NCBI GenBank assembly: GCA_965224245.1
Contig: OZ245046.1
Location: forward strand, 3,552,001 to 3,616,000
Origin: Candidatus Eiseniibacteriota bacterium
GTDB lineage: Bacteria > Eisenbacteria > RBG-16-71-46 > CAZAMP01
Length of the DNA: 64,000 nt
Reading direction: 5' to 3'
The notes beneath the pieces are model-generated. The model did no database searches. It was given only the letters and a program-made list of their open reading frames with translations, and was not told the DNA's origin. Made by a program: the position numbers and the translations under genes. The stretch's first letter is position 1. Each line of letters opens with the position of its first letter. Below are positions 17,959 to 35,614 of the stretch, piece after piece.

Positions 17959-18624
17959 ATGGGATGGATCTCGAGATTCTACGGGTCGACGATCGGCAAG
18001 AAGTTCATCGTGGGGATCACGGGTCTCGGCATGGTGCTGTTCCTGATCGCGCACCTCGTGGGGAACCTGAAGGTCTACGAGGGCCGTGACGCCATGATCG
18101 AGTATGCCGAGCTTCTCCGGTGGGAGCCGGTGATCCTGTGGGCATTTCGTCTGGGACTGCTGGCCTTCCTCGTTCTGCACGTCACGACGATCCTCCAGCT
18201 CACCCGCCGGAACGCGGCGGCCCGGCCCGTCAGCTACGCGTCCATGGCCACGTCCGAGGCCAGCGGCGCGTCACGCACGATGGTCGTCGGGGGGGTCACG
18301 ATCCTCCTGTACGTGATCTACCACGTTCTTCATCTGACGCTGGCCGAGGTCCACACCGGCATGGTGACGCACGGCGCGGAGCACGTCTACGACAACGTCG
18401 TCGCGAGCTTCCAGAGACCGCTGATCAGCGGCGTGTACATCCTCGCTCAGGTTGCCCTCTTCTTTCACCTCTCGCACGGCATCCAGAGCGCCTTCCGAAC
18501 GCTCGGCGTCTCCCACCCGAGGTACGTCGACCTGGTCCGACACGGGGGGCGCGCACTGTCGTTCATCATCGTGGTCGGCTTCATCTCCATCCCGGTGGCC
18601 GTGCTCACCGGGGTCGTGAAGTAG
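17959..18624 (+). CDS. sdhC: succinate dehydrogenase/fumarate reductase cytochrome b558 subunit
   Basis: STIGKKFIVGITG, AHLVGNL, HLSHGIQSAFRTLG; 5 TM helices. Confidence 0.93.
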   Translation: MGWISRFYGSTIGKKFIVGITGLGMVLFLIAHLVGNLKVYEGRDAMIEYAELLRWEPVILWAFRLGLLAFLVLHVTTILQLTRRNAAARPVSYASMATSEASGASRTMVVGGVTILLYVIYHVLHLTLAEVHTGMVTHGAEHVYDNVVASFQRPLISGVYILAQVALFFHLSHGIQSAFRTLGVSHPRYVDLVRHGGRALSFIIVVGFISIPVAVLTGVVK

Positions 18625-18636
18625 AGGAGGATCGCC

Positions 18637-20546
<1,910 letters not shown>

Positions 20547-20550
<4 letters not shown>

Positions 20551-21308
20551 ACCTGACACTCAAGGTGTGGCGCCAGAAGAACGCGGACGCACCGGGGCGA
20601 CTCGAGACCTACGAGGCGCGCGACGTCAGCCCCGACAGCTCGTTCCTGGAGATGCTCGACGTCGTCAACGAGGGGCTCGAGGCTCAGGGACAGGAGCCCA
20701 TCGCGTTCGATCACGACTGCCGCGAGGGCATCTGCGGCGCCTGCTCGTTGATGATCGACGGCGTCGCCCACGGTCCGCAACGCGGCACGACGGCCTGCCA
20801 GCTCCACATGCGCACGTTCCGCGACGGCGACACGATCGTGGTCGAGCCGTGGCGGGCCCGTGCGTTCCCGCCGGTGAAGGACCTCGTGGTGGACCGCAGC
20901 GCGTTCGATCGCATCATCGAAGCAGGCGGGTACGTCAGCGTGAACACCGGGGCGGCCCAGGACGCCAACCTGATCCCCATCGGCAAGGAGAGCGCCGACG
21001 ATGCGTTCGACGCCGCGGCGTGCATCGGCTGCGGGGCATGTGTCGCGAGCTGCAAGAACGCGAGCGCGATGCTGTTCGTCAGCGCCAAGATCTCTCACCT
21101 CGGACACCTCCCCCAGGGACAGCCCGAGCGGGCTCGCCGTGCCCAGGCCATGGTCGCACAGATGGACGCCGAGGGGTTCGGCGGATGCACGAACCAGGGC
21201 GAGTGCGAAGCGGTGTGCCCGAAGGAGATCAAGATGACGAACATCTCGCGGATGAACGCGGACTTCGTCCGGGCGAGCTTCGGGTCGAGCCTGGCCGGCG
21301 GGGGCTAG
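20547..21308 (+). CDS. sdhB: succinate dehydrogenase/fumarate reductase iron-sulfur subunit
   Basis: [33 protein letters not shown]. Confidence 0.97.
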
Positions 21309-21371: not shown

Positions 21372-24173
21372 TCAGGCCCCGTGCACGGCGAACGCACCCC
21401 AGTAGAACGGGTGCGTCCAGGACTCGCGGACCCGCTCGCGCGCCCGCCGGAGGACGAGGGCGGTGTCGGCACCCGGCGACCCGGCGGAGAGGCCGTCGTA
21501 GAACGCATCCATCAGCGCCGCGGTGGCCCGATCGTGCACACGCCAGTGGCTGGCCACGAGCTGCCGTGCGCCGGCCGCGAGGAATGCGTGCGTGACTCCC
21601 GATAGATCGTCGCCGTCGCCGGTGAACGTCTGCCCGCTCGCGCACGCGCTCAGGACGACCAGATCGCATGCGATCCGGCGATCCATCAGGTCGGCCACGA
21701 AGAGGGCGCCGTCCAGCGTGCTCAGCCGGGAGAACAGCGGGTTGTCGTCCCGGAAGACGCCGTGCGTGGACAGGTGCAGCAGGCCGTCGCGCTCGGCCAC
21801 GGCGAGCACGTCGTCGGTCGTCGGATCCACGAGCACCGACGGCCCCAGCGCCTCCAGGCGCGCGGCCACCGCCCGAAGCTCACGCGGCACCGATGCGGGC
21901 CCTCCGTCGACGAGCCCCGCGATCGTCACGCGACGCGACGCCGCCCGGCGGCGCCTGGGACGGACCAGATCCACCGTGGGCGAGCGCGCGATCGTCCAGC
22001 GCTCGTCCGCATAGCATCGCCCATCGTGAAGACATTCGAACGGAACGTGGTGGGTCGGACCGTCGGGCACGATCACGAGACGACCACACGTGAGACGGTC
22101 CTCGATCGGTCGGAGGAGCGTGTCGTAGAGACGGCGCAGGACCTCGTCGGCGGCGCGACGCTGGAACGCCACGTTGCCCATCCGATCGGCGGCCAGGGCC
22201 ATCGTGTCGAGCTGATGGCGAACACGCCCCACGAGATCGACGAGCGTCGAGGTGCTCTCCTCGATCGTCCGGTGCCACACGTCGTTGCGTGAGATCCCGA
22301 TCACGAGCAGGGACTCTGGCAGGACGGTGTAGGACAGGACCAGGGTGTCCGCGGGCAACCGTCGTCGAACCTGGTCCAGATCGCGCCGCCGCACGGTGCG
22401 CGGCCCGGAGTCGTGGGCTCCCGCGTCTCGCCGTCGCTCCGCGGATGCGATCCGGCGCTCGAGTCGCGTGATCCGACGGCGCAGGCGCTCCCCCTCCCGC
22501 CCGAGTGCGCGCTCCGGCTCGTCGTACTCCCAGCTCTCGAGCCGGCGTGTCAACGCACCGAGTCGCACGCGTGCGTCGTCGTGCGCCGCGCTCGTGCCGC
22601 CCCGTGTCCGCCGCGCGTGAAGGCGCTCGCGGTGGGCGCGTCCTCGGACCTCCTCGACGACGTCCAGGAGCACGGCCGGATCCACGCGGCGCCGCTCCGC
22701 CAGCAGCGCCGCGAGCTCACGATAGGCGCGCGCATGGGTCGCGAACGCGTGCGCGCGATAGGCGATGCCGGGGATCGTCAAGCGCTCGGACTCCGCCGCG
22801 GTGATGGCCCGCTTCAGCGCCCGGCGGGCCTCGCGATCGTCGTGCCGGCGTCGGGCCACGCTCCCCACGGCCAGCCAGTAGCTCGCCTGCGCGCCAGCGG
22901 GAAGTCGGGATACGGCATCACGTCCTCCGGCGAGCGTCCTCGCCGCGAGGTCGGCGCGTCCCTGTGCGAGCCGGCACGCCGAGACGACCTCGCGCGCCTC
23001 GAGCTCCGCGCGAACGTCCCCGGTCTTCGCGAACCGCACCCGCGCGAGACCGGCCAGCTCGAGCGCGGGGGTGAGGTCCCCGGCCTCGAGCCGCGCCCGG
23101 GCGGCCGCCAGGCGACACGTCGCCAGCCGCGACCAGTATCGCTCGTGACGGAAGTACGCAAGCGGGACCTCCAGCCGCTCGGCGGCCCGCCGCGCGTGGC
23201 CGGCACGGACCAGCGCCCGCGCCTCGGTGACGCGGGCGAGCATGGCATCGACGACCAGGCCCTCGTCGTCGAACGCGGTCGTCCCCGCCCGGGCCTCCTC
23301 GATCGCGTCGCGCGGCATGCCCAGATCCAGAAAGGTGTTGGCGCGCTGCAGCCGTGCCGCCGCGACCATGTCGCGCGCGTCCATCGACTCGAAGAGATCG
23401 CTGCATGCTTCCAGACAGCCGAGGGCGGCTCGGTAGTCGCCGAGCACGCGCTCGAGGTGGGATCGGTTGTACAGGGCCTGTGCGCGGATGCGCGACAGCC
23501 CGAGGCGCTCGCTCTCCTCCTCGGCTTCGCGAAACCGCTCGCGCGCCTCGCGCACCCGATCGAGATTGGTCGCCGCCACCCCGCGGTTGACCAGGAGCGA
23601 GACGGTGGTGGCGTCGGCGATCCCGGCCTTCTCGAACTCGGCTCGGGCGCGCCGGTAGAGACCGTCCGCGTCGGCATGGCGCTCCTGGTGATAGGCCAGG
23701 TTGCCGAGGTTCATGTAGAGCTTGGCCAGATACACCCGGTCGCCCGCGCTCCGAAGCAGTCGCTCCGCTCGACGCGCCGCGCGGTTGGACGCCCGCGTAT
23801 CGCCCAGCACCCCCAGCACACCGACCCAGCCCACGAGGATCTCGCCGAGCAGGCGATCGGCGCCCGCGCGCTCAGCGTGCGCGCTGGCGTCGCGGTAGGC
23901 GGCGTTCGCATCCGCGAGGTGTCCGGCGTAGATGGAGGCCTCGGCGCGAGCCCGGGCCGCGATCGCCCGGACGTGAGCGTCGTCGAGACCGTCGGTGGCG
24001 GCGGTGAGGGCGTCGGCAATGGCCAGGGCCGCCGCCGGGTCCTTTCCGAGAAGCGACGCCACACGATCCCGAACCGATGTGGCAACGTCGAGGGTTGGCG
24101 GAGGTCCGGTGCCGAGGTGCGCGATCAGCGCGCCCGGCGCGAGGGCGGCAGGGTCGATGCCGGATGACGTCAC
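21372..24173 (-). CDS. TPR-repeat + CHAT (caspase-like cysteine protease) protein
   Basis: TPR-like helices (LAKLYMNLGNLAY...), LVIVPDGPTHHVPFECL, catalytic His in LHLSTHG, Cys in VVLSACASG, end HPFYWGAF. Confidence 0.93.
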   Translation of the reverse strand: MTSSGIDPAALAPGALIAHLGTGPPPTLDVATSVRDRVASLLGKDPAAALAIADALTAATDGLDDAHVRAIAARARAEASIYAGHLADANAAYRDASAHAERAGADRLLGEILVGWVGVLGVLGDTRASNRAARRAERLLRSAGDRVYLAKLYMNLGNLAYHQERHADADGLYRRARAEFEKAGIADATTVSLLVNRGVAATNLDRVREARERFREAEEESERLGLSRIRAQALYNRSHLERVLGDYRAALGCLEACSDLFESMDARDMVAAARLQRANTFLDLGMPRDAIEEARAGTTAFDDEGLVVDAMLARVTEARALVRAGHARRAAERLEVPLAYFRHERYWSRLATCRLAAARARLEAGDLTPALELAGLARVRFAKTGDVRAELEAREVVSACRLAQGRADLAARTLAGGRDAVSRLPAGAQASYWLAVGSVARRRHDDREARRALKRAITAAESERLTIPGIAYRAHAFATHARAYRELAALLAERRRVDPAVLLDVVEEVRGRAHRERLHARRTRGGTSAAHDDARVRLGALTRRLESWEYDEPERALGREGERLRRRITRLERRIASAERRRDAGAHDSGPRTVRRRDLDQVRRRLPADTLVLSYTVLPESLLVIGISRNDVWHRTIEESTSTLVDLVGRVRHQLDTMALAADRMGNVAFQRRAADEVLRRLYDTLLRPIEDRLTCGRLVIVPDGPTHHVPFECLHDGRCYADERWTIARSPTVDLVRPRRRRAASRRVTIAGLVDGGPASVPRELRAVAARLEALGPSVLVDPTTDDVLAVAERDGLLHLSTHGVFRDDNPLFSRLSTLDGALFVADLMDRRIACDLVVLSACASGQTFTGDGDDLSGVTHAFLAAGARQLVASHWRVHDRATAALMDAFYDGLSAGSPGADTALVLRRARERVRESWTHPFYWGAFAVHGA

Positions 24174-24223: not shown

Positions 24224-24928
24224 TCATGCCTGCTCGTCGATCCGGAACGGTGGGATGTGGACCCGATCGGACCCGAGCGTGAACGTGAGCTCGAACTCGC
24301 CCCAGGGTAGGGCATCGAAGACGAACTCGCCAAACTCGTTCAGGTCGGCCTCGGTCGGGGTCGAGGATGCGCTCGCGCGAACCGTGACCGTGCGGCGCGG
24401 CGGCAGCTCGTCCGCGGCGGTGGGCGTCACCTGACCGCGCAGGACGCAGCGATCGGCCTCGCGGTCGGCCGACACGGAGATCGCATAGGCGTCGGTGTCG
24501 TAGACGAGGAGCCGCGGTGATGCCGACACGGCTCCGCGGACCGCGGCGGACGGCCGGAGCGAATCGGCGACCAGCGTGGCCACGATCTCGCGCAACCCGT
24601 CGGCGATGCGCGCACCGAGACCGGCGGCGGCACGGTCGGACGACGACCGCGCTCCGCGCAGCTGGGAGAGGGCGCGGTTGATGGCGGCGACGTCGGGCGA
24701 CACGTCTCCGGCGACCACGAGGCCGCGGGCGAACCGCACCAGCTCGGCGAGCTCGGCGCGGCATCGCGCACAGCCGGCCAGGTGATCGGTCGTCGCCGCC
24801 GCGACCCGCTCCATGGACGCCTCGGCCGTGTCCATCACGCGGGTCGGCCCGGTCCAGCCGCCGGCCTCCAGCCGGTGCCACGCGACCGCGAACAGCTCGT
24901 CCCAGGTGATGTGCGTGTCGTGACTCAT
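24224..24928 (-). CDS. putative soluble zinc-binding anti-sigma factor with C-terminal beta-sandwich domain
   Basis: HLAGCARC (HxxxCxxC) motif, ATGA coupling to the ECF gene, no TM helix seen. Confidence 0.7.
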   Translation of the reverse strand: MSHDTHITWDELFAVAWHRLEAGGWTGPTRVMDTAEASMERVAAATTDHLAGCARCRAELAELVRFARGLVVAGDVSPDVAAINRALSQLRGARSSSDRAAAGLGARIADGLREIVATLVADSLRPSAAVRGAVSASPRLLVYDTDAYAISVSADREADRCVLRGQVTPTAADELPPRRTVTVRASASSTPTEADLNEFGEFVFDALPWGEFELTFTLGSDRVHIPPFRIDEQA

Positions 24929-25566
24929 GTCCGCTCCTCGGTCGGCCGCGCCGCCAGAGTGGGAGACCCGGAAGGTCTCTCGTCCTTCGCGCGTGTGGAC
25001 CCTCGGCCGGGCGGCGATGATACCTCCCCGAAGCGTTTTTGGAGCTTCTTGAGGCACCGGCCGCGGCTGGGCCCGATGCTGCCGATCGGGATCTCGGTGC
25101 GCGCGACGATCTCCTCGTAGCTGGGCCGCGGCTCCTCGAGAAAGAGCGCGCTCAGGAGCTCGCGACATCGTGGATCGAGAGAGGTCACGAGCGACCGGAG
25201 TCGCTTCGCGTCCTCGACGGCCATGATGACCTCCTCGACGTCCGGGGCCTCGTCGGGCATGTCGCCCACGTCACGGTCCGCGTCGTCCGCGGCCAGGTCG
25301 GGCCGGCGGCGGGTGGCGATGTCGAGGGCGGCCCGGTAGGCGATGCTGTAGATCCACGAGGGGAGCTTGTCGAGGTCGCGGAGGCGATCGATGGCGCGAA
25401 ACGCGGCCAGCCAGGCGTTCTGCTCGGCGTCCTCCCGGTCGTCCGCCGAGAGCCGGACCCGCCGGCAGGCCACGCGCACGAGCCCACCGTAGTCCTCCAT
25501 GATCGTCCGCCAGGACGCCTCGTCGCCGGCGATCAACGATTCGATGTCGACGTCCCGTCGCTCCAC
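24925..25566 (-). CDS. ECF RNA polymerase sigma factor
   Basis: Region 2 DREDAEQNAW...LPSWIYSIAYR; region 4 SYEEIVARTEIPIGSIGPSRGRCLKKL. Confidence 0.93.
   Translation of the reverse strand: MERRDVDIESLIAGDEASWRTIMEDYGGLVRVACRRVRLSADDREDAEQNAWLAAFRAIDRLRDLDKLPSWIYSIAYRAALDIATRRRPDLAADDADRDVGDMPDEAPDVEEVIMAVEDAKRLRSLVTSLDPRCRELLSALFLEEPRPSYEEIVARTEIPIGSIGPSRGRCLKKLQKRFGEVSSPPGRGSTRAKDERPSGSPTLAARPTEERT
24997..25024 (-). promoter_or_regulatory. putative ECF promoter copy 1 (G-GTATCA-N15-GGGTCC) in the sigma 3' end, facing anti-sigma/CHAT
   Basis: One of four equally spaced motif copies (see findings). Confidence 0.55.
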
Positions 25567-25677
25567 GAGTCCCCCGGTCCCCGCCTGGTTGGTGACGCAC
25601 GCGCTCCGTCGACTCTACGTGAGCGACCGAAAACGGGTCAAACCAGCCGGCAGAGATCGGGGTTTCTCGTCGTCCCT

Positions 25678-25705
25678 GGTATCATTCACGGCATGCCCGG
25701 CATCT
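25678..25705 (+). promoter_or_regulatory. putative ECF promoter copy 2 (G-GTATCA-N15-GCATCT) ahead of the subtilase
   Basis: Ends 23 bp before the ATG at 25729. Confidence 0.6.
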
Positions 25706-25728
25706 GCCTCGGTGGGGGGAGCCACGCC

Positions 25729-27231
25729 ATGTCCCGGTTCATCCGTTCGATCGCCACATCGTCGCTGCTGGTGGCAGGTTCCGCATCGGCGGACCACCAC
25801 GAGCCCTATCCGCCGGATCAGGTGATTCTCCACCTCTACCCGGACTACGACATCAGCGAGGTCAACGAGCGGTGGATGACCACCACGCTCTCGTCGATTC
25901 CGGGCACCGATCTCTACGTCGTTCAGACGCCCACCTACCCCAAGGACCTCGAGGGCTACACGGACCTCATGGAGGCCGAGGACGTCGCCATCATGACGGC
26001 CGAGCCCAACTGGACCCAGGGCACCCCCGAGAGCGTGCGCCAGATGGTGCTGATCGCGGTGGGCGGCGACTACGTGGACTTCGAGGACCAGGGGCTCGGC
26101 GAGCGGATCGGTCTGGACCCCGCGCACGCTCTCAGCACGGGCGCCGGCACCACCATCGCCCTCCTCGACACGGGGGTCGATCCGATGCACGACGCGTTCG
26201 TGGGTCGGCTGCGTCCCGACGGGCTGGACACCGTCGACGACGACACGACGCCCTGGGAGGTGTCGAACGGCATCGACGACGACCTCGACGGCACGATCGA
26301 CGGGGGCTTCGGCCACGGATCCATGGTGGGCGGCATCCTCGCCCTGACCGCCCCCGACGCCGAGATCCTGCCCGTCCGCGTGCTCGACGACGAGGGACGC
26401 GGGTCCACCTGGGACATCCTGGAGGGCCTCGCCCACGTGATCTCGGCCGGCGACGTGGACGTGATCAACATGAGCTTCGGCGTTCCCGACCACGTCGAGT
26501 CGCTGGCGGCACTCGTCGTCCAGGCCGACGTCGCCGGCATCGTCATGGTGGCCGGGGCGGGTAACGGCTCGTCGGAGGAGCCCGCCTACTTCCCGGCCCG
26601 GCACTCCAGCGTGCTGATGGTGACGGCGCTCGACTCCACCGACGTCAAGGCCGACTTCGCCGACTGGAACGTGCTGGTGGACGTCTCCGCGCCGGGCACC
26701 GGCGTTCGCAGCGCCTATCCCGGCAACGGCTGGGCGCTCGGCAGCGGCTGCTCGTTCGCGACGCCGTTCGTGGCCGCCGAGGCCGCGCTGGTCCGGAGCA
26801 CGAGCCCGCTCGCGTCGACCTGGGAGATCCGTTCCGCCGTCCGGGGCGGCGTCGTCCCGATCGATCACCTCCCGGGGAACGCCCCGTACGTGGGACAGCT
26901 GGGGACCGGTCGCATCTACGTTCCGGGCTCGCTCCCGGGGACGGTGGCGGTGGACGATCCCCGCGGCGGCCCCGGCTCGCGGCTCTTCTCCCTCGGTCCC
27001 AATCCGACGCGAGGCGTCGTGCGCATCCGCGGCCTCGGGGGCCGATCGATCGACCGGGCCGAGGTCTACGACCTCGCCGGACGGCGCGTCGTCGTCCTCG
27101 AGGGTCCGGCGAGCACGATCGGGTGGGACGGCCGGACCGGATCCGGGCTCCTGGCGGCGCCCGGCATCTACGTCGTGAAGGTCACGAGCGGATCGACGAC
27201 GGCATCGTCACGGCTCCAGGTCGTTCGCTGA
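25729..27231 (+). CDS. secreted S8 subtilisin-like serine protease with FlgD-Ig/T9SS-like C-terminal domain
   Basis: Signal peptide ASA-D, LLDTGVD, GHGSMVGG, AGAGN, GSGCSFATP; tail PNPT...YDLAGRRV...WDGR...PGIY. Confidence 0.92.
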   Translation: MSRFIRSIATSSLLVAGSASADHHEPYPPDQVILHLYPDYDISEVNERWMTTTLSSIPGTDLYVVQTPTYPKDLEGYTDLMEAEDVAIMTAEPNWTQGTPESVRQMVLIAVGGDYVDFEDQGLGERIGLDPAHALSTGAGTTIALLDTGVDPMHDAFVGRLRPDGLDTVDDDTTPWEVSNGIDDDLDGTIDGGFGHGSMVGGILALTAPDAEILPVRVLDDEGRGSTWDILEGLAHVISAGDVDVINMSFGVPDHVESLAALVVQADVAGIVMVAGAGNGSSEEPAYFPARHSSVLMVTALDSTDVKADFADWNVLVDVSAPGTGVRSAYPGNGWALGSGCSFATPFVAAEAALVRSTSPLASTWEIRSAVRGGVVPIDHLPGNAPYVGQLGTGRIYVPGSLPGTVAVDDPRGGPGSRLFSLGPNPTRGVVRIRGLGGRSIDRAEVYDLAGRRVVVLEGPASTIGWDGRTGSGLLAAPGIYVVKVTSGSTTASSRLQVVR

Positions 27232-27319
27232 CCCGCCTCGCGACACGCGGTCGCACGAGCCGACTCGCTCCTCGTGGATCCCTCCGCCCACGCCGCGGCC
27301 GGCTTCACCGCGGTGCGTC

Positions 27320-27934
27320 TCACCGCTCCGCGGTCGCGACCACGTCCAGCGATGCGTCCTGGACCTCGCCCAGCTTCAGGAACAGGAACTTCGGACGTGA
27401 GATCGAGTAGTCGTCGAGCCGGACCGGAAACGCGGTGACGGCGCGCAGCGTCGAGGCGTCGGCGGCCAGGGTCAGCGTCACGAGGACCTCGATCCGGCGC
27501 GAGACGCCGTGCAGCGTCAGGGTCCCCGCCATGCGCACGTCGGTCGGCTGGCCGGCCGCGAGCGACGATGGCGGCTCGCCGAGCAGCGACGCGCCGCGGA
27601 ACGTCGCGGTGGGATGGCGATCGGTCTCGAGGTGGTTCTCCCGCATGTCCGCGTTCCGCTTGCCGATGCCGGTGTCGAGACTCGCCATGTCGACCTCGAC
27701 GACCACCGTGATGGAGTCGCCGAGCGCGGCGGGGTCGCACTCGATCACGCCGCTGACGGCGGTCGTCTTCCCGGTGAAAGACTCGAGCGGAGCGTGAGAC
27801 TCGAACTGCACCCGCGATTCGTCACCGGCGGCGATGACGAACCGCTCGGCGTGGGTGGGAATCGCGAACGTGATCACGGTCAGCATCGTGAGCGCATGGA
27901 TCGCCCACCGCCGCGATCGGGCCGGCACGTGCAC
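27320..27934 (-). CDS. YceI family periplasmic lipid/polyisoprenoid-binding protein
   Basis: SRVQF, SLDTGIGKRNADMRENHLETDRHPTATF, GTLTLHGVSR; signal peptide; GTG start after AAGGAG. Confidence 0.9.
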   Translation of the reverse strand: MHVPARSRRWAIHALTMLTVITFAIPTHAERFVIAAGDESRVQFESHAPLESFTGKTTAVSGVIECDPAALGDSITVVVEVDMASLDTGIGKRNADMRENHLETDRHPTATFRGASLLGEPPSSLAAGQPTDVRMAGTLTLHGVSRRIEVLVTLTLAADASTLRAVTAFPVRLDDYSISRPKFLFLKLGEVQDASLDVVATAER

Positions 27935-28012
27935 GGCGCATCGCTCCTTCTCCGGCCGTCTCCCGGGCAGTCGAAAACGGCGGCGCGCGTCGAGACGCGC
28001 CGTTCGAGATGA

Positions 28013-28040
28013 AGAGCCCGCGGCCGCCTCGTTTGATACC
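28013..28040 (-). promoter_or_regulatory. putative ECF promoter copy 3 (G-GTATCA-N15-GGCTCT) ahead of yceI
   Basis: Same motif and spacing as copies 1 and 2. Confidence 0.6.
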
Positions 28041-28128
28041 TGGTGTCGACGTTTTGTTCTCACGTTTCGTTCCCGCGTTGACCGCCGTCCGAACGTCCAT
28101 CTACGATCGCGTCACGGGAGATCCCAGC

Positions 28129-29244
28129 ATGCAGACGCACACGTCATCGTCCACGATTGAGATCCTCATCGCGTCGTGCCGCCCCGGCGGCCGTGCGCTC
28201 CTCGTCGCGACCGCGCTCACCGCGCTCGTGTCACAGGCGGCGGTCGCGACACCTCGGTACTCGGTCCGGTACGGGCAGAGCTGCCACCTCTGCCACGTCA
28301 ACCCGACCGGGGGCGGTCAACGATCCCTCTTCGGCGCACAGTTCTTCTCTTACACCGATCTCGCGATGAAGACGCTGTCGTTCGACGAGCTCGATCGCGT
28401 CGATCCCGAGCTCACCGATCAGGTACAGATCGGGTTCGATCTGCGGACGCTGTACACGGGCGCCGACGAGCCCGGCACGAACACCTTCCTGGCCATGCAG
28501 GGCGACGTCTACCTGTCGGTGCAGCTCAGCGAGACGTGGTTCGCGCAGTTCGACGAGGGCCTGCGAGACGACTACGAGGTCATGGCCACCGGACACGTGC
28601 TCCCCGCCAACGGGTACGTGAAGGCCGGACGCTTCGTGCCGCCCTACGGCATGCGGATCGCCGACCACACCGCGTTCGTCCGCGAGCGGCTGGGCTTCGA
28701 TTACGCCTGGAAGGAGACCGGGCTCGAGATCGGCTTCCACCCCGAGCCGATCGACGTCGCAGTCGCGGTGACCAACGGCAACACGTTGCTCCTGGACGGC
28801 GACGAGATGAAGGCGGTGACCGCGCGAGGCGACGTGCGCACGTCCGCGCTCGGTGCGAACCTGTGGATCGGTGTCACCGGCCGGTGGAACGGACATCCCG
28901 ATCTGCCCGACGACCGGATCGCCGGAGGGTACGGAGGCCTCGCCGCGGGCCCGGTCACCGTGCTCGGCGAGGTCGCGTTCCGACGGTTCCGCACCGACGC
29001 GCTGGTCACGTTCGTCGAGCTGGCCGCGCTCGTCTCCCGAGGCGTCACCATTCGAGCCGAGTACGACTTTCACGACCGCGACGTCGACGAGACGTCCGGG
29101 GCCGACAACATGTGGGTGCTGGGAGCCGAGATTGTGCCCCGGGGCTACCTGCAGCTCATCGGGAACGTTCGGCTGCGGCGGCCGACCGACGATGCGGTCC
29201 CGGACGTCGCCGAGGGCGATCTCCAGCTGCACCTGTTCTTCTGA
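28129..29244 (+). CDS. monoheme cytochrome c fused to a predicted outer-membrane beta-barrel (Cyc2-like)
   Basis: Signal peptide, ATPRYSVRYGQSCHLCHVNPTGGG, alternating beta-strand pattern, C-terminal LQLHLFF. Confidence 0.75.
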   Translation: MQTHTSSSTIEILIASCRPGGRALLVATALTALVSQAAVATPRYSVRYGQSCHLCHVNPTGGGQRSLFGAQFFSYTDLAMKTLSFDELDRVDPELTDQVQIGFDLRTLYTGADEPGTNTFLAMQGDVYLSVQLSETWFAQFDEGLRDDYEVMATGHVLPANGYVKAGRFVPPYGMRIADHTAFVRERLGFDYAWKETGLEIGFHPEPIDVAVAVTNGNTLLLDGDEMKAVTARGDVRTSALGANLWIGVTGRWNGHPDLPDDRIAGGYGGLAAGPVTVLGEVAFRRFRTDALVTFVELAALVSRGVTIRAEYDFHDRDVDETSGADNMWVLGAEIVPRGYLQLIGNVRLRRPTDDAVPDVAEGDLQLHLFF

Positions 29245-29299
29245 CGGGCGACGTCCGGGGCACGGTGTCGCCGACCGGGAGCGCAACGAGCCGCGACGG

Positions 29300-29992
29300 C
29301 TAGTTGTCGCGGGTCCCCTGATCGATCCAGTCCGAGATCAGGAGAATGTCCGCGGGGTCCATGGGCGCGCCACCGAACGGCATCTGCTCCCCGAACCCGG
29401 CCGTCCCCAGGAGCTTCCGGACGATCACGCTTCCCGGTCCGTCACGCCGCGTCACCACCGGACCGTGATCGCTGTCGCCGCGGAGCAGCTCTTCGCGTGT
29501 CCCGAGAACGAAGTTGCCGCTGCCGACTCCCGTGTGGCAGGCGTAGCATCCGTAGCGCGCGCTGAAAAAGAGCGGCTCCACGTCCGCTTCGTAGGACACG
29601 AGCGCGGGCGCCACCTCGAACGGTAGCCCGTCGGTGGCACCGCCGTCCCCCACGACGACGATGTCGCCCGAGATCGCGCCCTCGGGAACGATGACCCGGA
29701 TCTCGTCATCGGACCACGAGACCACCTGCGCGTCGACGCGCCCGGCCGCGCCGGAGAACGCCACCCGCCGATCCCTCCGTGCGTCGCCGAGGTCACGCCC
29801 GACGACCCGCACCGTGTCCCCGACCACGGTGCGCGCCGGCACGCCGGACGAGAGAACCCCCGCCGGCCCCGCCGGCGAGTCGGGCGCCGGCGTCGGCGCG
29901 GATCCCAGGTCGCCACAGCCGACCAGCCCGGCCACGGCGAGCGCGCCGAGCCCGGGCCGCACGGCACGTGCCCTTCGACGAGTCTCGATCAC
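29300..29992 (-). CDS. lipoprotein with IPT/TIG domain and C-terminal monoheme cytochrome c
   Basis: LVGC lipobox, VVSWSDDEIRVIVPEGAISG (IPT/TIG), GCYACH, QMPFGG (axial Met), WIDQG; GTG after GAGGAG. Confidence 0.82.
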   Translation of the reverse strand: MIETRRRARAVRPGLGALAVAGLVGCGDLGSAPTPAPDSPAGPAGVLSSGVPARTVVGDTVRVVGRDLGDARRDRRVAFSGAAGRVDAQVVSWSDDEIRVIVPEGAISGDIVVVGDGGATDGLPFEVAPALVSYEADVEPLFFSARYGCYACHTGVGSGNFVLGTREELLRGDSDHGPVVTRRDGPGSVIVRKLLGTAGFGEQMPFGGAPMDPADILLISDWIDQGTRDN

Positions 29993-30061
29993 TGTCGTCG
30001 CTCCTCGGCCATCCCTCGACGGTACCCGCATCCGGCGGGTGGCGGCACGGCTCCATCGAGT

Positions 30062-30089
30062 GGATGCGGGGGCGGCGGCGAAAAATACC
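30062..30089 (-). promoter_or_regulatory. putative ECF promoter copy 4 (G-GTATTT-N15-GCATCC) ahead of the cytochrome c lipoprotein
   Basis: Same spacing; lies just downstream of the EF-G terminator. Confidence 0.5.
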
Positions 30090-30195: not shown

Positions 30196-32214
30196 CTACT
30201 CCTCGTCCTTGTCCTCGAACTTGGCCACGATCTGCTCCTGCACGTCGCCGGGAACGAGATCGTAGTGCGAGAACTCGATCGTGTAGCTGCCCTCGCCGGC
30301 CGTCATCGAGCGGAGCGCCGCGGGGTAGGTCTGCACCTCGCCCATCGGAATCTGCGCCTTGATGATCTGGAGATCACCCTGGGTGTCCATGCCCATGACA
30401 CGACCGCGACGGCCGTTCAGGTCACCGGTGATGTCGCCCATGTACTGGGCCGGCACGGCGACCGTGAGGTTCACGATGGGCTCCAGGAGCTTGGGCTTGG
30501 CCTCCTTCACGGCCTTCTTGATCGCCTCGCGGCCGGCGGTCTTGAATGCGACCTCCTTCGAGTCGACCGGGTGATGCTTGCCGTCGTAGAGCCGGACGCA
30601 GAGATCGACGACCGGATACCCGGCGATGATCCCGTTGTCCATCTTCTCGCGAACGCCCTTCTCGACCGCCGGGATGAACACGCCGGGGATCACGCCGCCG
30701 ACGATCTCGTTGACGAACTCGAACCCGGCGCCCCGCTCCCGTGGCTCGACCTTGATGTAGATCTCGCCGAACTGCCCGGCCCCGCCGGTCTGCTTCTTGT
30801 GCCGGTGGTGGGCCTGAACGGGCAGCGTGATGGTCTCGCGATACGGGATCCGGGGCAGCGCCGTGTCGACCTCGACCTTGAACCGCTCCTTGAGCTGCTT
30901 GAGCATGAGCTCGAGATGCAGCTCGGAGATACCACGGACCACGAGCTCCTTGGTGTCCGGATCGTGCTCGGCCACGAACGTGGGATCGGACTCCGCGAGC
31001 TTGTGGAGCGCCTCTCCCATCTTCGTCTCGTCGTTTCGAGACTTCGGGGTGATGGCACGGACGACCATGGGCCTGGGGTACTGGACGCGGTCGAAGGCCA
31101 TCTTGTCGCTGGCCGTGATCGTGTCGCCGAAGCTGAGGTTGTCCACCTTCGCCAGCATCAGCACGTCGCCGGCCTCGGCCTTGCCCGCGGGCTTCGCGTC
31201 CTTGCCCACCACCTTCTGGAAATCGCCGACCTTCTGGGACTTGCCGATCTCGACGTTCATGACGTTGGCGCCGGGCTCGCACGAGCCCGACCACACGCGC
31301 AGGAACGCCTGCTTGCCGACGGCGCCGTGCTGGACGCGGAACACCTGCCCCGCGAAGGGCGCGTCCGGCTTTACCTCGACCGCGTCGTCGCCCTTCGATC
31401 CCTTCGGGAGACGCTCGGCGTCGAGCGGGGACGGGAAGTACTCGCAGACGCTCTCCAGGAACTTGTTGAACCCGAAGTCGGCGTTGAGGCCGGTGAACAG
31501 GATCGGGGTGAACGTCCGGCGGGCGATCGCCTTGGGCATGATGCGATGGATCGCGTCCATGCCGATGTCGCCCTCCTCGAGGTACTGCTCCATCAGGGCG
31601 TCGTCGGCCTCGACCGCGGCCTCGACCGCCTCCATGCGGTACTGCTCGACCTGGTCCTTCACCGCGGCGGGCGCGTTCGCGACGTCGAACACGCTCGCCA
31701 CGCCCTCGATGGCGGGGCCCCACCCCACCGGCATCTCGATCGGAATGCAGCGATCCCCGAACACCGAGCGGATCTTCTCCATCGTGTCCTCGAACGTCGT
31801 GTGCTCGGTGTCGATCTTGGTGACGACGATCACGCGGCCCTTGCCGAACTCCTCGGCCATCTCCCAGACCTTGCGCGTGTTCACGCCGATTCCGTCGCTC
31901 GCGGAGATCGTCACGCAGACCGTCTCGGCGACCGGGATGCAGTTGTAGACCTCGCCGATGAAGTCGGGGAAGCCGGGCGTGTCGATGAGCGTGATGTCGT
32001 GACCGCCGTGGGTGAAGGACGCGACCGCCGCGTAGATCGAGCTCTTGCGCTCCTTCTCGTTGTCCTCGTAGTCGAAGTGCGACGTGCCCTCGTCGACCTT
32101 GCCCTGGCGGTTGGTGATCTTGGCCTTGTGAAGGAGGGCGTCCGCGAGCGAGGTCTTGCCCGCGTGACCATGCCCAGCGAGGACGATATTGCGCTTCTTG
32201 GCGAGTTCCGCCAT
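30196..32214 (-). CDS. fusA2: elongation factor G paralog (EF-G II type)
   Basis: GHGHAGKTS, DTPGFPDF, ISELHLE, YRETI, HKKQTGGAGQFGE, DGKHHPVDS; not in an str operon. Confidence 0.92.
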   Translation of the reverse strand: MAELAKKRNIVLAGHGHAGKTSLADALLHKAKITNRQGKVDEGTSHFDYEDNEKERKSSIYAAVASFTHGGHDITLIDTPGFPDFIGEVYNCIPVAETVCVTISASDGIGVNTRKVWEMAEEFGKGRVIVVTKIDTEHTTFEDTMEKIRSVFGDRCIPIEMPVGWGPAIEGVASVFDVANAPAAVKDQVEQYRMEAVEAAVEADDALMEQYLEEGDIGMDAIHRIMPKAIARRTFTPILFTGLNADFGFNKFLESVCEYFPSPLDAERLPKGSKGDDAVEVKPDAPFAGQVFRVQHGAVGKQAFLRVWSGSCEPGANVMNVEIGKSQKVGDFQKVVGKDAKPAGKAEAGDVLMLAKVDNLSFGDTITASDKMAFDRVQYPRPMVVRAITPKSRNDETKMGEALHKLAESDPTFVAEHDPDTKELVVRGISELHLELMLKQLKERFKVEVDTALPRIPYRETITLPVQAHHRHKKQTGGAGQFGEIYIKVEPRERGAGFEFVNEIVGGVIPGVFIPAVEKGVREKMDNGIIAGYPVVDLCVRLYDGKHHPVDSKEVAFKTAGREAIKKAVKEAKPKLLEPIVNLTVAVPAQYMGDITGDLNGRRGRVMGMDTQGDLQIIKAQIPMGEVQTYPAALRSMTAGEGSYTIEFSHYDLVPGDVQEQIVAKFEDKDEE

Positions 32215-32585
32215 CTTTCCTCCTTGGACAGAGAAGCCGGCGCGAGGCCGGACGTAGCCGCTCGAAAGGTTGCTCGGTCGTCCGTCCGGCGCTCGGACGG
32301 CCGCGATTCAGAGCAACGCGCCACCCAGTGGCGAACGGGCCGGGGGCCGATTGACTGGCGTCAAGTGGCGTTCAGACAATGACTTAGGCCTGGAGTCGTC
32401 TTGGGCGGATGGGCATCCGAGTTCGAGACGAGCGCGAGTATAACGAAACGCTAGTCGACGACAAATCAATCTTCGCTCCGGGACCCGCTCGTGCGAACCC
32501 ATTCGCCAGCCTTCGACAAGCCTCCGGCGGCCCTGGGGCGGCCCCGGAGTCGGCCGATCGGTCCGGATCCGCGCGACGGTCGCCC

Positions 32586-33335
32586 GTGAGCCCGCCCCCC
32601 GCCGATCCGTGCGTGCTGGTGATCGTCCCCGCGCACCAGGAGGCCGCCAACGTGGGACGCGTGGTGGCGGACGTGCGCCACCACGTGCCCGCGGCCGACG
32701 TCGTGGTCGTGGACGACGGCTCCACCGATCGAACCGCCGCGGTGGCCGCGGACGCCGGCGCGGCGGTGCTCCGGCTACCGTTCAACCTCGGGGTCGGCGC
32801 CGCGATGCAGACGGGGTTTCGCATGGCCGTGCGGGACGGCTACGACATCGCGGTGCAGCTCGATGGGGACGGCCAGCACCCGGCCGAGGAGCTCCCGACC
32901 GTGCTGGAGCCGGTCGCGACCGGACGCGTCGACGTCGCGGTGGGAAGCCGGTACCTCGACCCCCTCGGATACGTGACGCCGGCCGGGCGGCGCGCCGGCC
33001 AGCGCTTCTTCTCGAGGCTCGTGAGCGGGCTCACCGCGCAGCGCTTCACGGACACCACGAGCGGCTTTCGCGCGTACTCGCGACCGGCGTTCTCGTTCCT
33101 GGCCACGAGCTACTCGCGCGACTATCCGGAGGTCAATGCGCTGGTCGCCCTCTGCCAGCACGGCTTCCGCGTGACCGAGGTGGCCGTGGCGATGCGCGAT
33201 CGGCAAGGAGGCACGTCGCACATCACGACCCGGCGCGCGATCTTCTACATGCTGAAGGTCTCGCTCTCGACACTCATGACGGCCGTCAGGCTCCGCTCTC
33301 GCGAGGGAGGCCAGCGGCGTTTGGACCGAACATGA
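32586..33335 (+). CDS. GT2 glycosyltransferase (polyprenol-phosphate sugar synthase-like)
   Basis: VIVPAHQE, VVDDGSTD, NLGVGAA, QLDGDGQH, DTTSGFRA; start codon uncertain. Confidence 0.9.
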   Translation: MSPPPADPCVLVIVPAHQEAANVGRVVADVRHHVPAADVVVVDDGSTDRTAAVAADAGAAVLRLPFNLGVGAAMQTGFRMAVRDGYDIAVQLDGDGQHPAEELPTVLEPVATGRVDVAVGSRYLDPLGYVTPAGRRAGQRFFSRLVSGLTAQRFTDTTSGFRAYSRPAFSFLATSYSRDYPEVNALVALCQHGFRVTEVAVAMRDRQGGTSHITTRRAIFYMLKVSLSTLMTAVRLRSREGGQRRLDRT

Positions 33336-35614
33336 ACCGACAGACCCTCGATCCGGCGCGCGTGCGCGCGCTCCTCGAAGACTCCGCCCGGCCGCTCAAG
33401 GCCAAGGAGATCGCACGCGAGCTCGGCGTCTCGACCTCCGACTACCGCAAGCTCAAGACCCTGCTCCGCGAGATGACGGCCACGGGAGACATCTACAAGG
33501 TGAAGCGCGGCCGCTACGCCCCGCCCGAGCGGATCAACGTCCTCGTGGGGCGGCTCGCCACGCGCAGCCGCCGAAACGCGACCGTGGTCACCGATGGCGG
33601 TGAGACCCTGTTCGTGGCCGCCGCCGGCGTCGGCAACGCGCTCGACGGGGACCGCGTCGCGGTCCGAGTGATCGATCCGAAGGCCAAGCCGCTCCCCGAG
33701 GCGGAGGTCATCCGCGTGATGGAGCACGCGCACACCGAGATCGTGGGCACGCTCTCGATCGACGGGCGCGTCGCGTCGGTGCGACCGGAGAACCCCAAGA
33801 TCCCACGCGACGTGTTGATCCCACCCGATGGGCTCGCAGACGCGAAGGACGGCGACCTCGTCACGGTGCGCATCGAGTCCTTCGGCGACGCGCGCACCAT
33901 GATGGTGGGCGCGGTCTCCGAGGTCCTCGGTCAGCGCGGCGACCCGGGCGTCGACGTGCTGATCGTCATGAAGGAGTTCGATCTCCCGCTCCGCTTTCCC
34001 GACGCCGTGGAGGCCGCCGCCGAGCGGCTTCCGGCGAGCCCCCGCCCGCGGGATCTGGCCGACCGCATGGATCTCACGGATCGCGTCGCGATCACGATCG
34101 ACCCGGTCGATGCCAAGGACTTCGACGACGCCCTGTCGATCCGCTCCCTCGGCGGCGGTCGGGTCGAGGTGGGGGTGCACATCGCCGACGTGAGCCACTA
34201 CGTGACGCCGGGCAGCGTGCTCGATCGGGAGGCCCACGCGCGCGCGACCAGCGTCTATCTGGTCGACCGCGTGGTCCCGATGCTGCCCGAGGCGCTCAGC
34301 AACCGCCTCTGCTCGCTGATCCCGAACGAGGATCGTCTCGCGTTCAGCGCGCTGTTCCGGATGACGTCCGACGGCGAGGTCTCGTCGGTGCGCTTCACGC
34401 CGTCGATCATCCACAGCCGGCGGCGCTTCGCGTATCAGGAGGTGCAGGCGTTGCTCGATGGCGGGCCGCCCGCCCCCGGCGACGCCGAGTTCGTGGAGCC
34501 GCTCCAGCGGCTCGCCGCCCTCTCGGACCGTCTCATCGCCAGGCGAACGGCGCGCGGCAGCCTCGACTTCGACCTCCCGGCCAGCCGGGTGATCCTCGAC
34601 GAGCACGGCATGCCGATCGACATCCAGAAGGTCGAGCGCCTGATGGCGCACCGTCTCGTGGAGTCGTTCATGCTGCTGGCGAACGAAGCCGTCGCGAAGC
34701 GACTGGCCACCCTCGAGATGCCGGGGCTGCATCGCGTGCACCAGGGCCCCGACGCGCTCGCGGTGAGCGAGCTGCGCGCGGCCCTGGCACGGTTCGGCGT
34801 CACGCTTCGCCTGACGAAGGACAAGTCGGTCACCCCGCGCGCGCTTCAGCGGGCGCTGGCCGAGGTGGCCGACCGACCAGAGGCCGAGGTGGTCAACACG
34901 CTCGTGCTGCGATCGATGAAGCGGGCGCTCTACGATGCCACCCCGCACGGACACTTCGGGCTGGCGGCGCGCCACTACACGCACTTCACCAGCCCGATCC
35001 GGCGCTACCCGGACCTGATCGTGCACCGCGTGCTGCGGGCCGCGTTGACTCACGGAGAGCCCCCGGTCGAGCGCGAGCTCGACATGCAGATGATCGCCGA
35101 ACACTGTTCGACGCGCGAGCGCAACGCCGAGGACGCCGAGCGGCAATCGGTCGAGCTGAAGAAGGTCCAGTTCATGGCCGAGCGCATCGGCGACGTCTTC
35201 GAGGGACGCATCGTCAGCGTGACCGTGTTCGGCTTCTTCGTCGAGCTGGACGCCTACCACGTGAACGGTCTGGTGCACGTGAACCGCCTGGGCGACGACT
35301 ACTACGCGTTCACCGAGGACACGCTGGCGCTGGTGGGCGAGCACACCGCGCGGCAGTTCCGCATCGGCGACCGCGTCACGGTCGAGGTGTCCCGGGCGGA
35401 TCTGGCGCGCCGTCAGATCGACTTCGACCTCGTCGAGGTGCTGACGCCGCGCCGCGGTGGCGGGCGCGCGTCGCGGAAGCGGCCGCCCGGCATCGGAGGC
35501 GACGGCGACGCAGCCCCGCACCCGCGCGGGTCCGAGGGCCGGCCGCGCGATGGCGTCGCCCACCGGCGTTCGCGTGGCCGAACGAAGGCAACTCGGCGAC
35601 GGCGCCGTTCGTAG
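33332..35614 (+). CDS. rnr: ribonuclease R
   Basis: TIDPVDAKDFDDALS, VHIADVSHYV, HFGLA..YTHFTSPIRRYPDL, S1 domain, basic tail. Confidence 0.96.
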   Translation: MNRQTLDPARVRALLEDSARPLKAKEIARELGVSTSDYRKLKTLLREMTATGDIYKVKRGRYAPPERINVLVGRLATRSRRNATVVTDGGETLFVAAAGVGNALDGDRVAVRVIDPKAKPLPEAEVIRVMEHAHTEIVGTLSIDGRVASVRPENPKIPRDVLIPPDGLADAKDGDLVTVRIESFGDARTMMVGAVSEVLGQRGDPGVDVLIVMKEFDLPLRFPDAVEAAAERLPASPRPRDLADRMDLTDRVAITIDPVDAKDFDDALSIRSLGGGRVEVGVHIADVSHYVTPGSVLDREAHARATSVYLVDRVVPMLPEALSNRLCSLIPNEDRLAFSALFRMTSDGEVSSVRFTPSIIHSRRRFAYQEVQALLDGGPPAPGDAEFVEPLQRLAALSDRLIARRTARGSLDFDLPASRVILDEHGMPIDIQKVERLMAHRLVESFMLLANEAVAKRLATLEMPGLHRVHQGPDALAVSELRAALARFGVTLRLTKDKSVTPRALQRALAEVADRPEAEVVNTLVLRSMKRALYDATPHGHFGLAARHYTHFTSPIRRYPDLIVHRVLRAALTHGEPPVERELDMQMIAEHCSTRERNAEDAERQSVELKKVQFMAERIGDVFEGRIVSVTVFGFFVELDAYHVNGLVHVNRLGDDYYAFTEDTLALVGEHTARQFRIGDRVTVEVSRADLARRQIDFDLVEVLTPRRGGGRASRKRPPGIGGDGDAAPHPRGSEGRPRDGVAHRRSRGRTKATRRRRRS

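Follow-up and report, generated by a model that had tools for sequence, protein, structure and literature searches.

The 64,000-nucleotide stretch analysed here (the window) is C1:3552001-3616000 of the 6.94 Mb genome of a Candidatus Eiseniibacteriota bacterium, C1 being contig OZ245046.1, and its sequence and coordinates agree with those of an earlier first-pass annotation. It contains a minus-strand cassette encoding, by ascending position, a protease with TPR and CHAT domains, a 234 amino acid orphan protein (here called the +1 protein) and a sigma factor of the extracytoplasmic function (ECF) type resembling the group ECF54. A subtilase gene is divergent from the cassette, and genes encoding a YceI-family protein, a porin-like protein and a lipoprotein lie beyond. 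Copies of a bipartite promoter-like motif, GTATCA followed at a fixed spacing by a second short box, face several of these genes. As set out below, the likeliest targets of the motif are the inhibitor and the protease of the sigma factor itself, envelope genes close by and a scattered set encoding secreted proteins, all of which it would switch on. Genes were called with our own dicodon model (5,181 in the genome), so called starts are only approximate. The features of the locus are:

21372..24173, minus strand: TPR-CHAT caspase-like protease, 933 amino acids, H804 and C844 intact (domain search, alignment)
24224..24928, minus strand: +1 gene, 234 amino acids, start overlapping the sigma stop; zinc anti-sigma-like N-terminal domain (H6, C53, C56), R131 loop, carboxypeptidase-regulatory-like beta-sandwich
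24925..25566, minus strand: ECF54-like sigma factor, 213 amino acids (Pfam Sigma70_r2, TIGR02937, tree)
24997..25024, minus strand: putative promoter site 1, within the sigma 3' tail, towards the +1 and TPR-CHAT genes (GGTATCA-N15-GnnTCY, exact)
25612..25641, minus strand: TTGACC-N18-TAGAGT ahead of the sigma gene, a sigma70-like promoter by consensus match only
25678..25705, plus strand: putative promoter site 2, towards the exported subtilase (GGTATCA-N15-GnnTCY, exact)
25729..27231, plus strand: S8 subtilase, 500 amino acids, catalytic motifs intact, predicted exported; C-terminal type IX secretion system (T9SS)-type sorting tail (TIGR04183 above cut-off)
27320..27934, minus strand: YceI-family protein, 204 amino acids (Pfam/NCBIfam searches)
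28013..28040, minus strand: putative promoter site 3, towards yceI (GGTATCA-N15-GnnTCY, exact)
28078..28107, plus strand: TTGACC-N18-TACGAT ahead of the cytochrome-porin gene, a sigma70-like promoter by consensus match only
28129..29244, plus strand: porin-like protein with a single CxxCH, 371 amino acids (no Pfam or NCBIfam match)
29300..29992, minus strand: predicted lipoprotein with one CxxCH, 230 amino acids (weak NCBIfam match)
30062..30089, minus strand: site 4, doubtful, before the cytochrome c lipoprotein (variant GGTATTT-N15-GCATCC present, class matrix 0.0)

The first-pass annotation had described four copies of the motif, each pointing at a gene start 20-80 bp away. Sites 1-3 are the only exact matches to GGTATCA-N15-GnnTCY in the window; 100 dinucleotide shuffles of the window gave a mean of 0.01 matches and none of the 100 reached three, a significance that is overstated because the pattern was derived from the same sites. 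Distances from sites 1-4 to the likely start are 69, 23, 78 and 70 nt (site 2 being measured to the ATG at 25729). Scored with a class matrix trained on other genomes, with equal-or-better sites counted on the main contig, site 3 reaches 18.6 (13 sites as good), site 1 14.3 (75) and site 2 9.5 (794), while site 4 scores 0.0 (34,129). Sites 1-3 are real, site 2 modestly so, and site 4 is doubtful, so three of the four copies stand. The T run of site 4 comes after a terminator-like hairpin 3' of the EF-G gene, and its GTATTT variant precedes the +1 gene at four class loci. Beyond these, 11 window sites score 9 or more, 10 of them inside called genes. A weaker back-to-back copy (GGTGTCG at 28042) had been thought to face the cytochrome-porin gene, but with a class-matrix score of -13.6 it is not supported; a sigma70-like promoter sequence is found there instead.

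Homologous sigma loci from other genomes (160 collected, 156 after removal of duplicates) show where the motif is kept. GTATCA peaks within 250 nt past the last conserved sigma motif, with 35 copies in the sense orientation and none in the antisense; it is also frequent upstream of the sigma gene (17 and 15 by strand), the remaining bins holding 0-12. From 72 foreign GTATCA sites we derived a -10 box, sCWCY, at 15 or 16 nt spacing; the search was seeded with GTATCA, and the box and spacing are the only learned parts. The box scores 3.9 per site, against 0.96 at distant sites and about 0 in shuffled sequence. The motif is better written GTATCA-N15/16-sCWCY, the additional G bases of the earlier pattern appearing as a local flavour. 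In these terms the -10 parts of sites 1, 2 and 3 read GGTCC, CATCT and GCTCT, and the family box scores 3.7 at site 2 and 8.2 at site 3, the best among the intergenic GTATCA sites of the genome.

An unseeded count at 80 same-class loci likewise returned GTATCA as the top hexamer before the +1 gene (41/71). Class-matrix matches precede the +1 gene at 54 of 71 loci (the training set), the sigma gene itself at 1 of 79, a divergent non-subtilase neighbour at 15 of 35, a divergent subtilase at 4 of 19 (score of at least 12), the gene after CHAT at 7 of 36 and other genes in 7 of 288 cases, a decoy spacer giving 0-2 in every gene category. Site 1 encodes Val-Ser as GTA-TCA inside the sigma gene. Across sigma tails this dipeptide is written GTATCA in 16 of 20 cases, compared with 1 of 1,116 in neighbouring genes, a bias that points to selection at the DNA level. 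A conserved sigma70 promoter was found, with the pattern used, before only 4 of 78 class sigma genes, so such a promoter is not general there. Where the motif has targets adjacent to the locus in relatives, these often encode a glycosyltransferase or a small exported protein: in one family (loci L326, L328, L333, L338, L348 and similar) the gene divergent from sigma encodes a glycosyltransferase with the motif in front, and a small carboxypeptidase-regulatory-like protein (~125-170 amino acids, with a signal-peptide-like start) recurs as a target near the cassette (L190, L194, L307, L318, L350).

Our survey of 201 genomes identified 85 with an ECF54-like sigma factor; some sigma-bearing genomes were possibly missed because 15 candidates were scored per genome. 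Counts at the correct and the decoy spacing are 1,550/1,179 for the 84 sigma-bearing genomes other than this one, compared with 1,212/1,200 for the 116 that lack the sigma. The motif excess is found only in genomes with such a sigma factor, with the reservation that related genomes are not independent and the p values therefore overstate the case. We conclude that the motif is very probably the promoter of the ECF54-like sigma family. The first-pass annotation had proposed carrying a position weight matrix to homologous loci, and its motif comes through: it is positionally kept there and enriched before the +1 gene. The feedback on the anti-sigma and CHAT genes that it had suggested turns out to be the most conserved part of the motif's placement. 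Its reading of the motif as the -35/-10 elements of this particular sigma factor holds as a sigma-family promoter (by conserved position, tail codons and genome excess) but not as an exclusive assignment, since a paralog exists.

Huang et al. 2015 is cited on ECF54 by Casas-Pastor et al. 2021. The supplement to the latter (PMC7826278) gives ECF54 a carboxypeptidase-regulatory-like protein at +1, a subtilase at -1 or +2, a TPR-CHAT protein nearby and a predicted promoter of GTATCAG (-35) and CTCC (-10), and lists the group as 100% Actinobacteria and without an anti-sigma factor. Judged by that supplement, the motif has already been predicted in print for ECF54 and the present system is a variant of a known one. 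The same context recurs here: a subtilase neighbours the sigma gene, a TPR-CHAT gene is nearby, the +1 protein is carboxypeptidase-regulatory-like and the box pair derived from foreign loci is of the GTATCA/CTCC type; the G following GTATCA is not retained at sites 1-3. Unlike ECF54, the +1 protein has an added zinc anti-sigma-like domain (H6, C53, C56) with a modelled sigma complex, the promoter lies mostly after the sigma gene, where it would drive +1 and CHAT, and a C-terminal secretion tail is present on the subtilase and on most of the distant targets. A quick tree, built without a reference ECF54 sequence and with 53 Actinomycetota rows taken as ECF54 from gene context, groups the sigma factor with Ca. 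Eisenbacteria rows in a clade of 27 rows (98), while the 53 Actinomycetota rows stand separately (97); all fall within one family (100). On this sequence evidence the protein behaves like ECF54 but, lying outside the actinobacterial clade, is best called ECF54-like.

The regulon had been taken to be local. Genome-wide, however, GGTATCA-N15-GnnTCY is matched exactly eight times at spacer 15, whereas any other spacer between 8 and 23 gives 0-3 matches, and five of the eight lie outside the window, four of these being intergenic and facing a gene start; about a dozen further sites face tail-bearing secreted proteins, and a purely local regulon does not fit. Among the intergenic GTATCA copies, 28 have a good -10 box, of which 23 face a start, compared with 77 of the 156 with a poor one (p 0.0016). 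Proteins with a C-terminal FlgD/T9SS-like tail, identified with our own profile, lie behind 14 of the 23 start-facing sites (13 genes, the subtilase among them) against a background of 388 of 2,754 genes, and nine decoy spacers give 0-5 such targets. Of 20 targets picked by hand, 16 have a Pfam match to FlgD_ig or Por_Secre_tail, and the bodies of the proteins are of LVIVD, BNR, CHRD and beta-helix type. In two sigma-bearing relatives 10/30 and 8/30 of the sites examined (30 of 52 and 30 of 40) face a start, many of the targets having signal-peptide-like ends, compared with 3/30 and 4/19 in two relatives without the sigma (30 of 39 and 19 of 19 examined). The tail ends 459 of the 5,181 called proteins of the genome by the same profile. 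A CHRD-repeat secreted protein is encoded at C1:4894623-4896062 under the top class-matrix site, and 35 of the 85 genomes with the sigma have CHRD matches, compared with 9 of the 116 without it, kinship being uncorrected.

Several observations weigh against so wide a set of targets. Well-scoring sites also lie inside coding sequence (38 in all), and the nine decoy spacers give 5-17 start-facing sites compared with 23, so that the sense excess alone is modest. Ortholog conservation of the distant targets is weak, the motif being kept at 3/24 for the CHRD protein (2 of 29 loci were dropped for lack of a gene call) and 0/3 for a DUF3466 protein. The subtilase, too, is a labile target, the decoy spacer giving two matches at divergent subtilases where the motif gives four.

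Zinc-binding anti-sigma (ZAS) domains are helical and N-terminal, carry a His-x3-Cys-x2-Cys motif and bind regions 2 and 4 of the sigma factor. The +1 protein has such a motif: its family retains H6, C53, C56 and R131 (the arginine in 50 of 51 +1 proteins), 31 of 72 class +1 proteins contain HxxxCxxC and 61 contain CxxC, and zf-HC2 matches weakly in 3 of 51 and in 47% of one Atlas cluster. The carboxypeptidase-regulatory-like part matches PF13620 below cut-off (E 0.0012; a match in 5 of 51 family members), and hhalign gives 97.8% between the +1 protein and an actinobacterial +1 protein of that name. In our model of the protein (predicted local distance difference test, pLDDT, 83.8) the N-terminal domain is helical, R131 is surrounded by coil and there is also a beta-sandwich. 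Foldseek with this model gave no match at E 0.001 or better, and the best fold comparison (Z 8.8, root-mean-square deviation 2.4, 84 aligned) is to generic beta-sandwiches, with the N-terminal domain barely probed.

The predicted complex of sigma and the +1 protein scores 0.75, compared with 0.00 for the best control, with an interface formed by +1 residues 9-94; of 157 solved complexes 116 attain the mark used, as do 2 of the 215 mismatched pairs, the runs agree in at least 82% of contacts and partner pLDDT is at least 72. Two points count on the other side. The pass may reflect resemblance to solved zinc anti-sigma/ECF complexes, and the actinobacterial +1 proteins are shorter and lack CxxC, yet keep the arginine; an anti-sigma role may therefore not be family-wide. 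Taking the models together, we are fairly confident that the +1 protein at this locus acts as an anti-sigma factor.

The catalytic His and Cys of the CHAT domain are conserved in at least 85% of 59 CHAT proteins and are intact here (H804, C844), as a protease-gated switch would need. No Arg-Gly was seen among the columns conserved at that level, a PDB sequence search with CHAT gave no match, and the score against a Csx29 model was 15.6 bits (cut-off 300). Neither the CHAT protein nor the +1 protein has a hydrophobic N-terminus, and both look cytoplasmic. Separase-type CHAT proteases are reported to cut after arginine and craspases not to, and R131, in an exposed and near-invariant loop of the model, is a candidate CHAT cut site. 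The conserved arginine could instead be structural or a binding site, which tells against this proposal.

Two systems are described in which a protease lies beside a soluble anti-sigma factor and an ECF sigma factor, an arrangement that resembles the one proposed here from genes and models. In CalpL-CalpT-CalpS (10.1101/2024.05.08.593097), cutting of the CalpT anti-sigma factor frees the sigma factor, cleavage exposing a degron; in Csx29-Csx30-CASP-sigma (10.1101/2023.06.23.546230) a protease cuts the inhibitor, with release of the ECF sigma factor. Both are linked to CRISPR and triggered by cyclic tetra-adenylate (cA4) or target RNA, whereas no such sensor is seen here: the immediate flanks (17959-21308, a succinate dehydrogenase operon; 30196-35614, EF-G and RNase R) are ordinary, with no search having been aimed at CRISPR, CBASS or other defence genes. 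Another circuit, DdvS/DdvA of Myxococcus xanthus (PMC11506125), combines an ECF sigma factor, an anti-sigma domain and TPR-CHAT, and cleavage is proposed there. DdvA, however, is one transmembrane protein with a periplasmic CHAT domain, whereas anti-sigma and CHAT are here separate and apparently cytoplasmic. By analogy with CalpT, the balance tips slightly towards CHAT gating the sigma factor by cutting the +1 protein.

Other explanations have to be set against this account. It is very improbable that some unrelated regulator binds at the motif, or that AT-richer intergenic DNA yields the pattern by chance: GTATCA is indeed commoner in intergenic DNA, which makes up 11% of the genome and holds 184 of its 650 copies, but the fixed spacing, strand bias, codon-level conservation in sigma genes and excess only in sigma-bearing genomes all argue otherwise. 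A more substantial difficulty is a second ECF54-like sigma factor at C1:4262477-4263076, which is accompanied by +1 and TPR-CHAT genes of its own and preceded by a high-scoring motif site. The two sigma factors are 45% identical with near-identical region 4 motifs, and the paralog could read the same sites. The promoters would then be real but shared, the paralog reading most or all distant sites and the window sigma factor its own cassette only, which we consider unlikely. Site 1 lies inside the window sigma gene at a clade-conserved position, whereas the tail of the paralog lacks such a site, and the three window sites combine a 16-nt spacer with T in the -10 box, in contrast to a 15-nt spacer with A at the two sites closest to the paralog. 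Dividing sites between the paralogs by the -10 base was nonetheless abandoned, as it reaches no significance class-wide (28 of 35 pairs concordant against a shuffled mean of 26, p 0.21), and the spacer concordance of 31/35 pairs is inflated by one family of near kin. We think it likely that the window sigma factor reads sites 1-3. TTGACC-N18-TAGAGT is shared upstream of both paralogs (window 25612-25641 and upstream of C1:4263076). The second cassette (C1:4246000-4263400) adjoins a glycosyltransferase/alginate-export-like/ABC/phosphotransferase cluster, and the motif occurs in that region before sigma and before a tail-bearing secreted protein; some relatives (L309, L316, L329) have two ECF54-like cassettes close together, and several genomes have 5-7 such sigma factors.

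The regulon might also be confined to the cassette (anti-sigma, CHAT and subtilase), the yceI/cytochrome trio being a separate neighbour whose sites are incidental. The YceI, CxxCH porin-like and CxxCH lipoprotein genes (27320-29992) form a conserved class trio, usually one operon but here in three orientations; two contigs bridge the subtilase-to-lipoprotein stretch without differences, as a check on misassembly, though these come from the same single sample and are possibly the assembly source. The trio is kept in relatives with and without the sigma, and none of the 51 stretches fetched, a few of them truncated where a contig ends, has an ECF54-like sigma beside it. Site 4 scores no better than background, and a sigma70-like promoter precedes the porin gene. 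The motif preceded the trio in 3 of 27 sigma-bearing and 0 of 24 other genomes (p 0.14); an operon-aware test, with a pattern widened after the first, gave 5/27 and 0/24 with no decoy matches (p 0.034) in three genera, one match of the first test not being recovered and fully evaluable stretches numbering 16 and 18 (4 and 0 matches). With the yceI site also among the genome's best, restriction to the cassette is improbable, and a sigma link to the trio is plausible for yceI here, with modest support from sequence. A different kind of doubt leaves the promoter and anti-sigma factor in place and makes CHAT an output that processes other proteins, or a protease that degrades the sigma factor, without gating. 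The review PMC8999054 proposes sigma proteolysis for ECF54, and CHAT is itself under the sigma factor's promoter; set against these are the near-invariant exposed arginine, kept even in the shorter actinobacterial +1 proteins, and the two protease/anti-sigma/sigma trios described above, which work by anti-sigma cutting. We rate this alternative as rather unlikely, if the least so of the four.

The explanation that we prefer, which joins the sigma factor, +1 inhibitor, CHAT cut, tail promoter and dispersed targets, seems to us reasonably probable as a whole. In it, motif, position, sigma tie, target enrichment and catalytic residues were computed and sigma/+1 binding was modelled. A housekeeping-type (sigma70-like) promoter would probably drive the sigma gene, and the soluble +1 protein would keep the sigma factor inactive by means of its zinc anti-sigma domain. 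Upon a signal, the cytoplasmic TPR-CHAT protease would cut the +1 protein at R131, the arginine of the exposed loop; the fragment would be degraded and the sigma factor freed, a step suggested by analogy with CalpT, where cleavage exposes a degron. Once free, the sigma factor would use the promoter within the 3' tail of its own gene to transcribe +1 and CHAT, so that the switch is reset and the sigma factor is not amplified, and would also transcribe the exported subtilase, yceI and ~10-15 scattered genes, mostly for secreted proteins with the FlgD/T9SS-like tail. Transcription from the sites, cleavage, degradation, the signal and the assignment of sites to paralogs are the parts that we infer. 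Extending the scheme to the ECF54-like sigma factors of this uncultured class at large, as a cytoplasmic caspase-gated switch with inverted autoregulation, a tail promoter for inhibitor and protease, an arginine-loop cut and a secreted-protein set plus YceI/cytochrome module, is tentative and perhaps too generous.

In the literature found, by a search excluding most subscription papers, there is no study of an ECF54 member, of this promoter or of this class, and ECF54 has a predicted promoter and a protease-rich context without an anti-sigma factor or regulon. To this, sequence comparison would add inverted feedback, a candidate anti-sigma factor with its cut site and a dispersed secreted-protein regulon. 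With a candidate inhibitor, a candidate cut residue, ranked promoters and a target class, the locus makes ECF54 switching testable. If the proposed scheme is true, a surface-protein programme would here be controlled by proteolysis independently of CRISPR, and ECF54 would gain the regulator, the cut site and the targets that it lacks so far.

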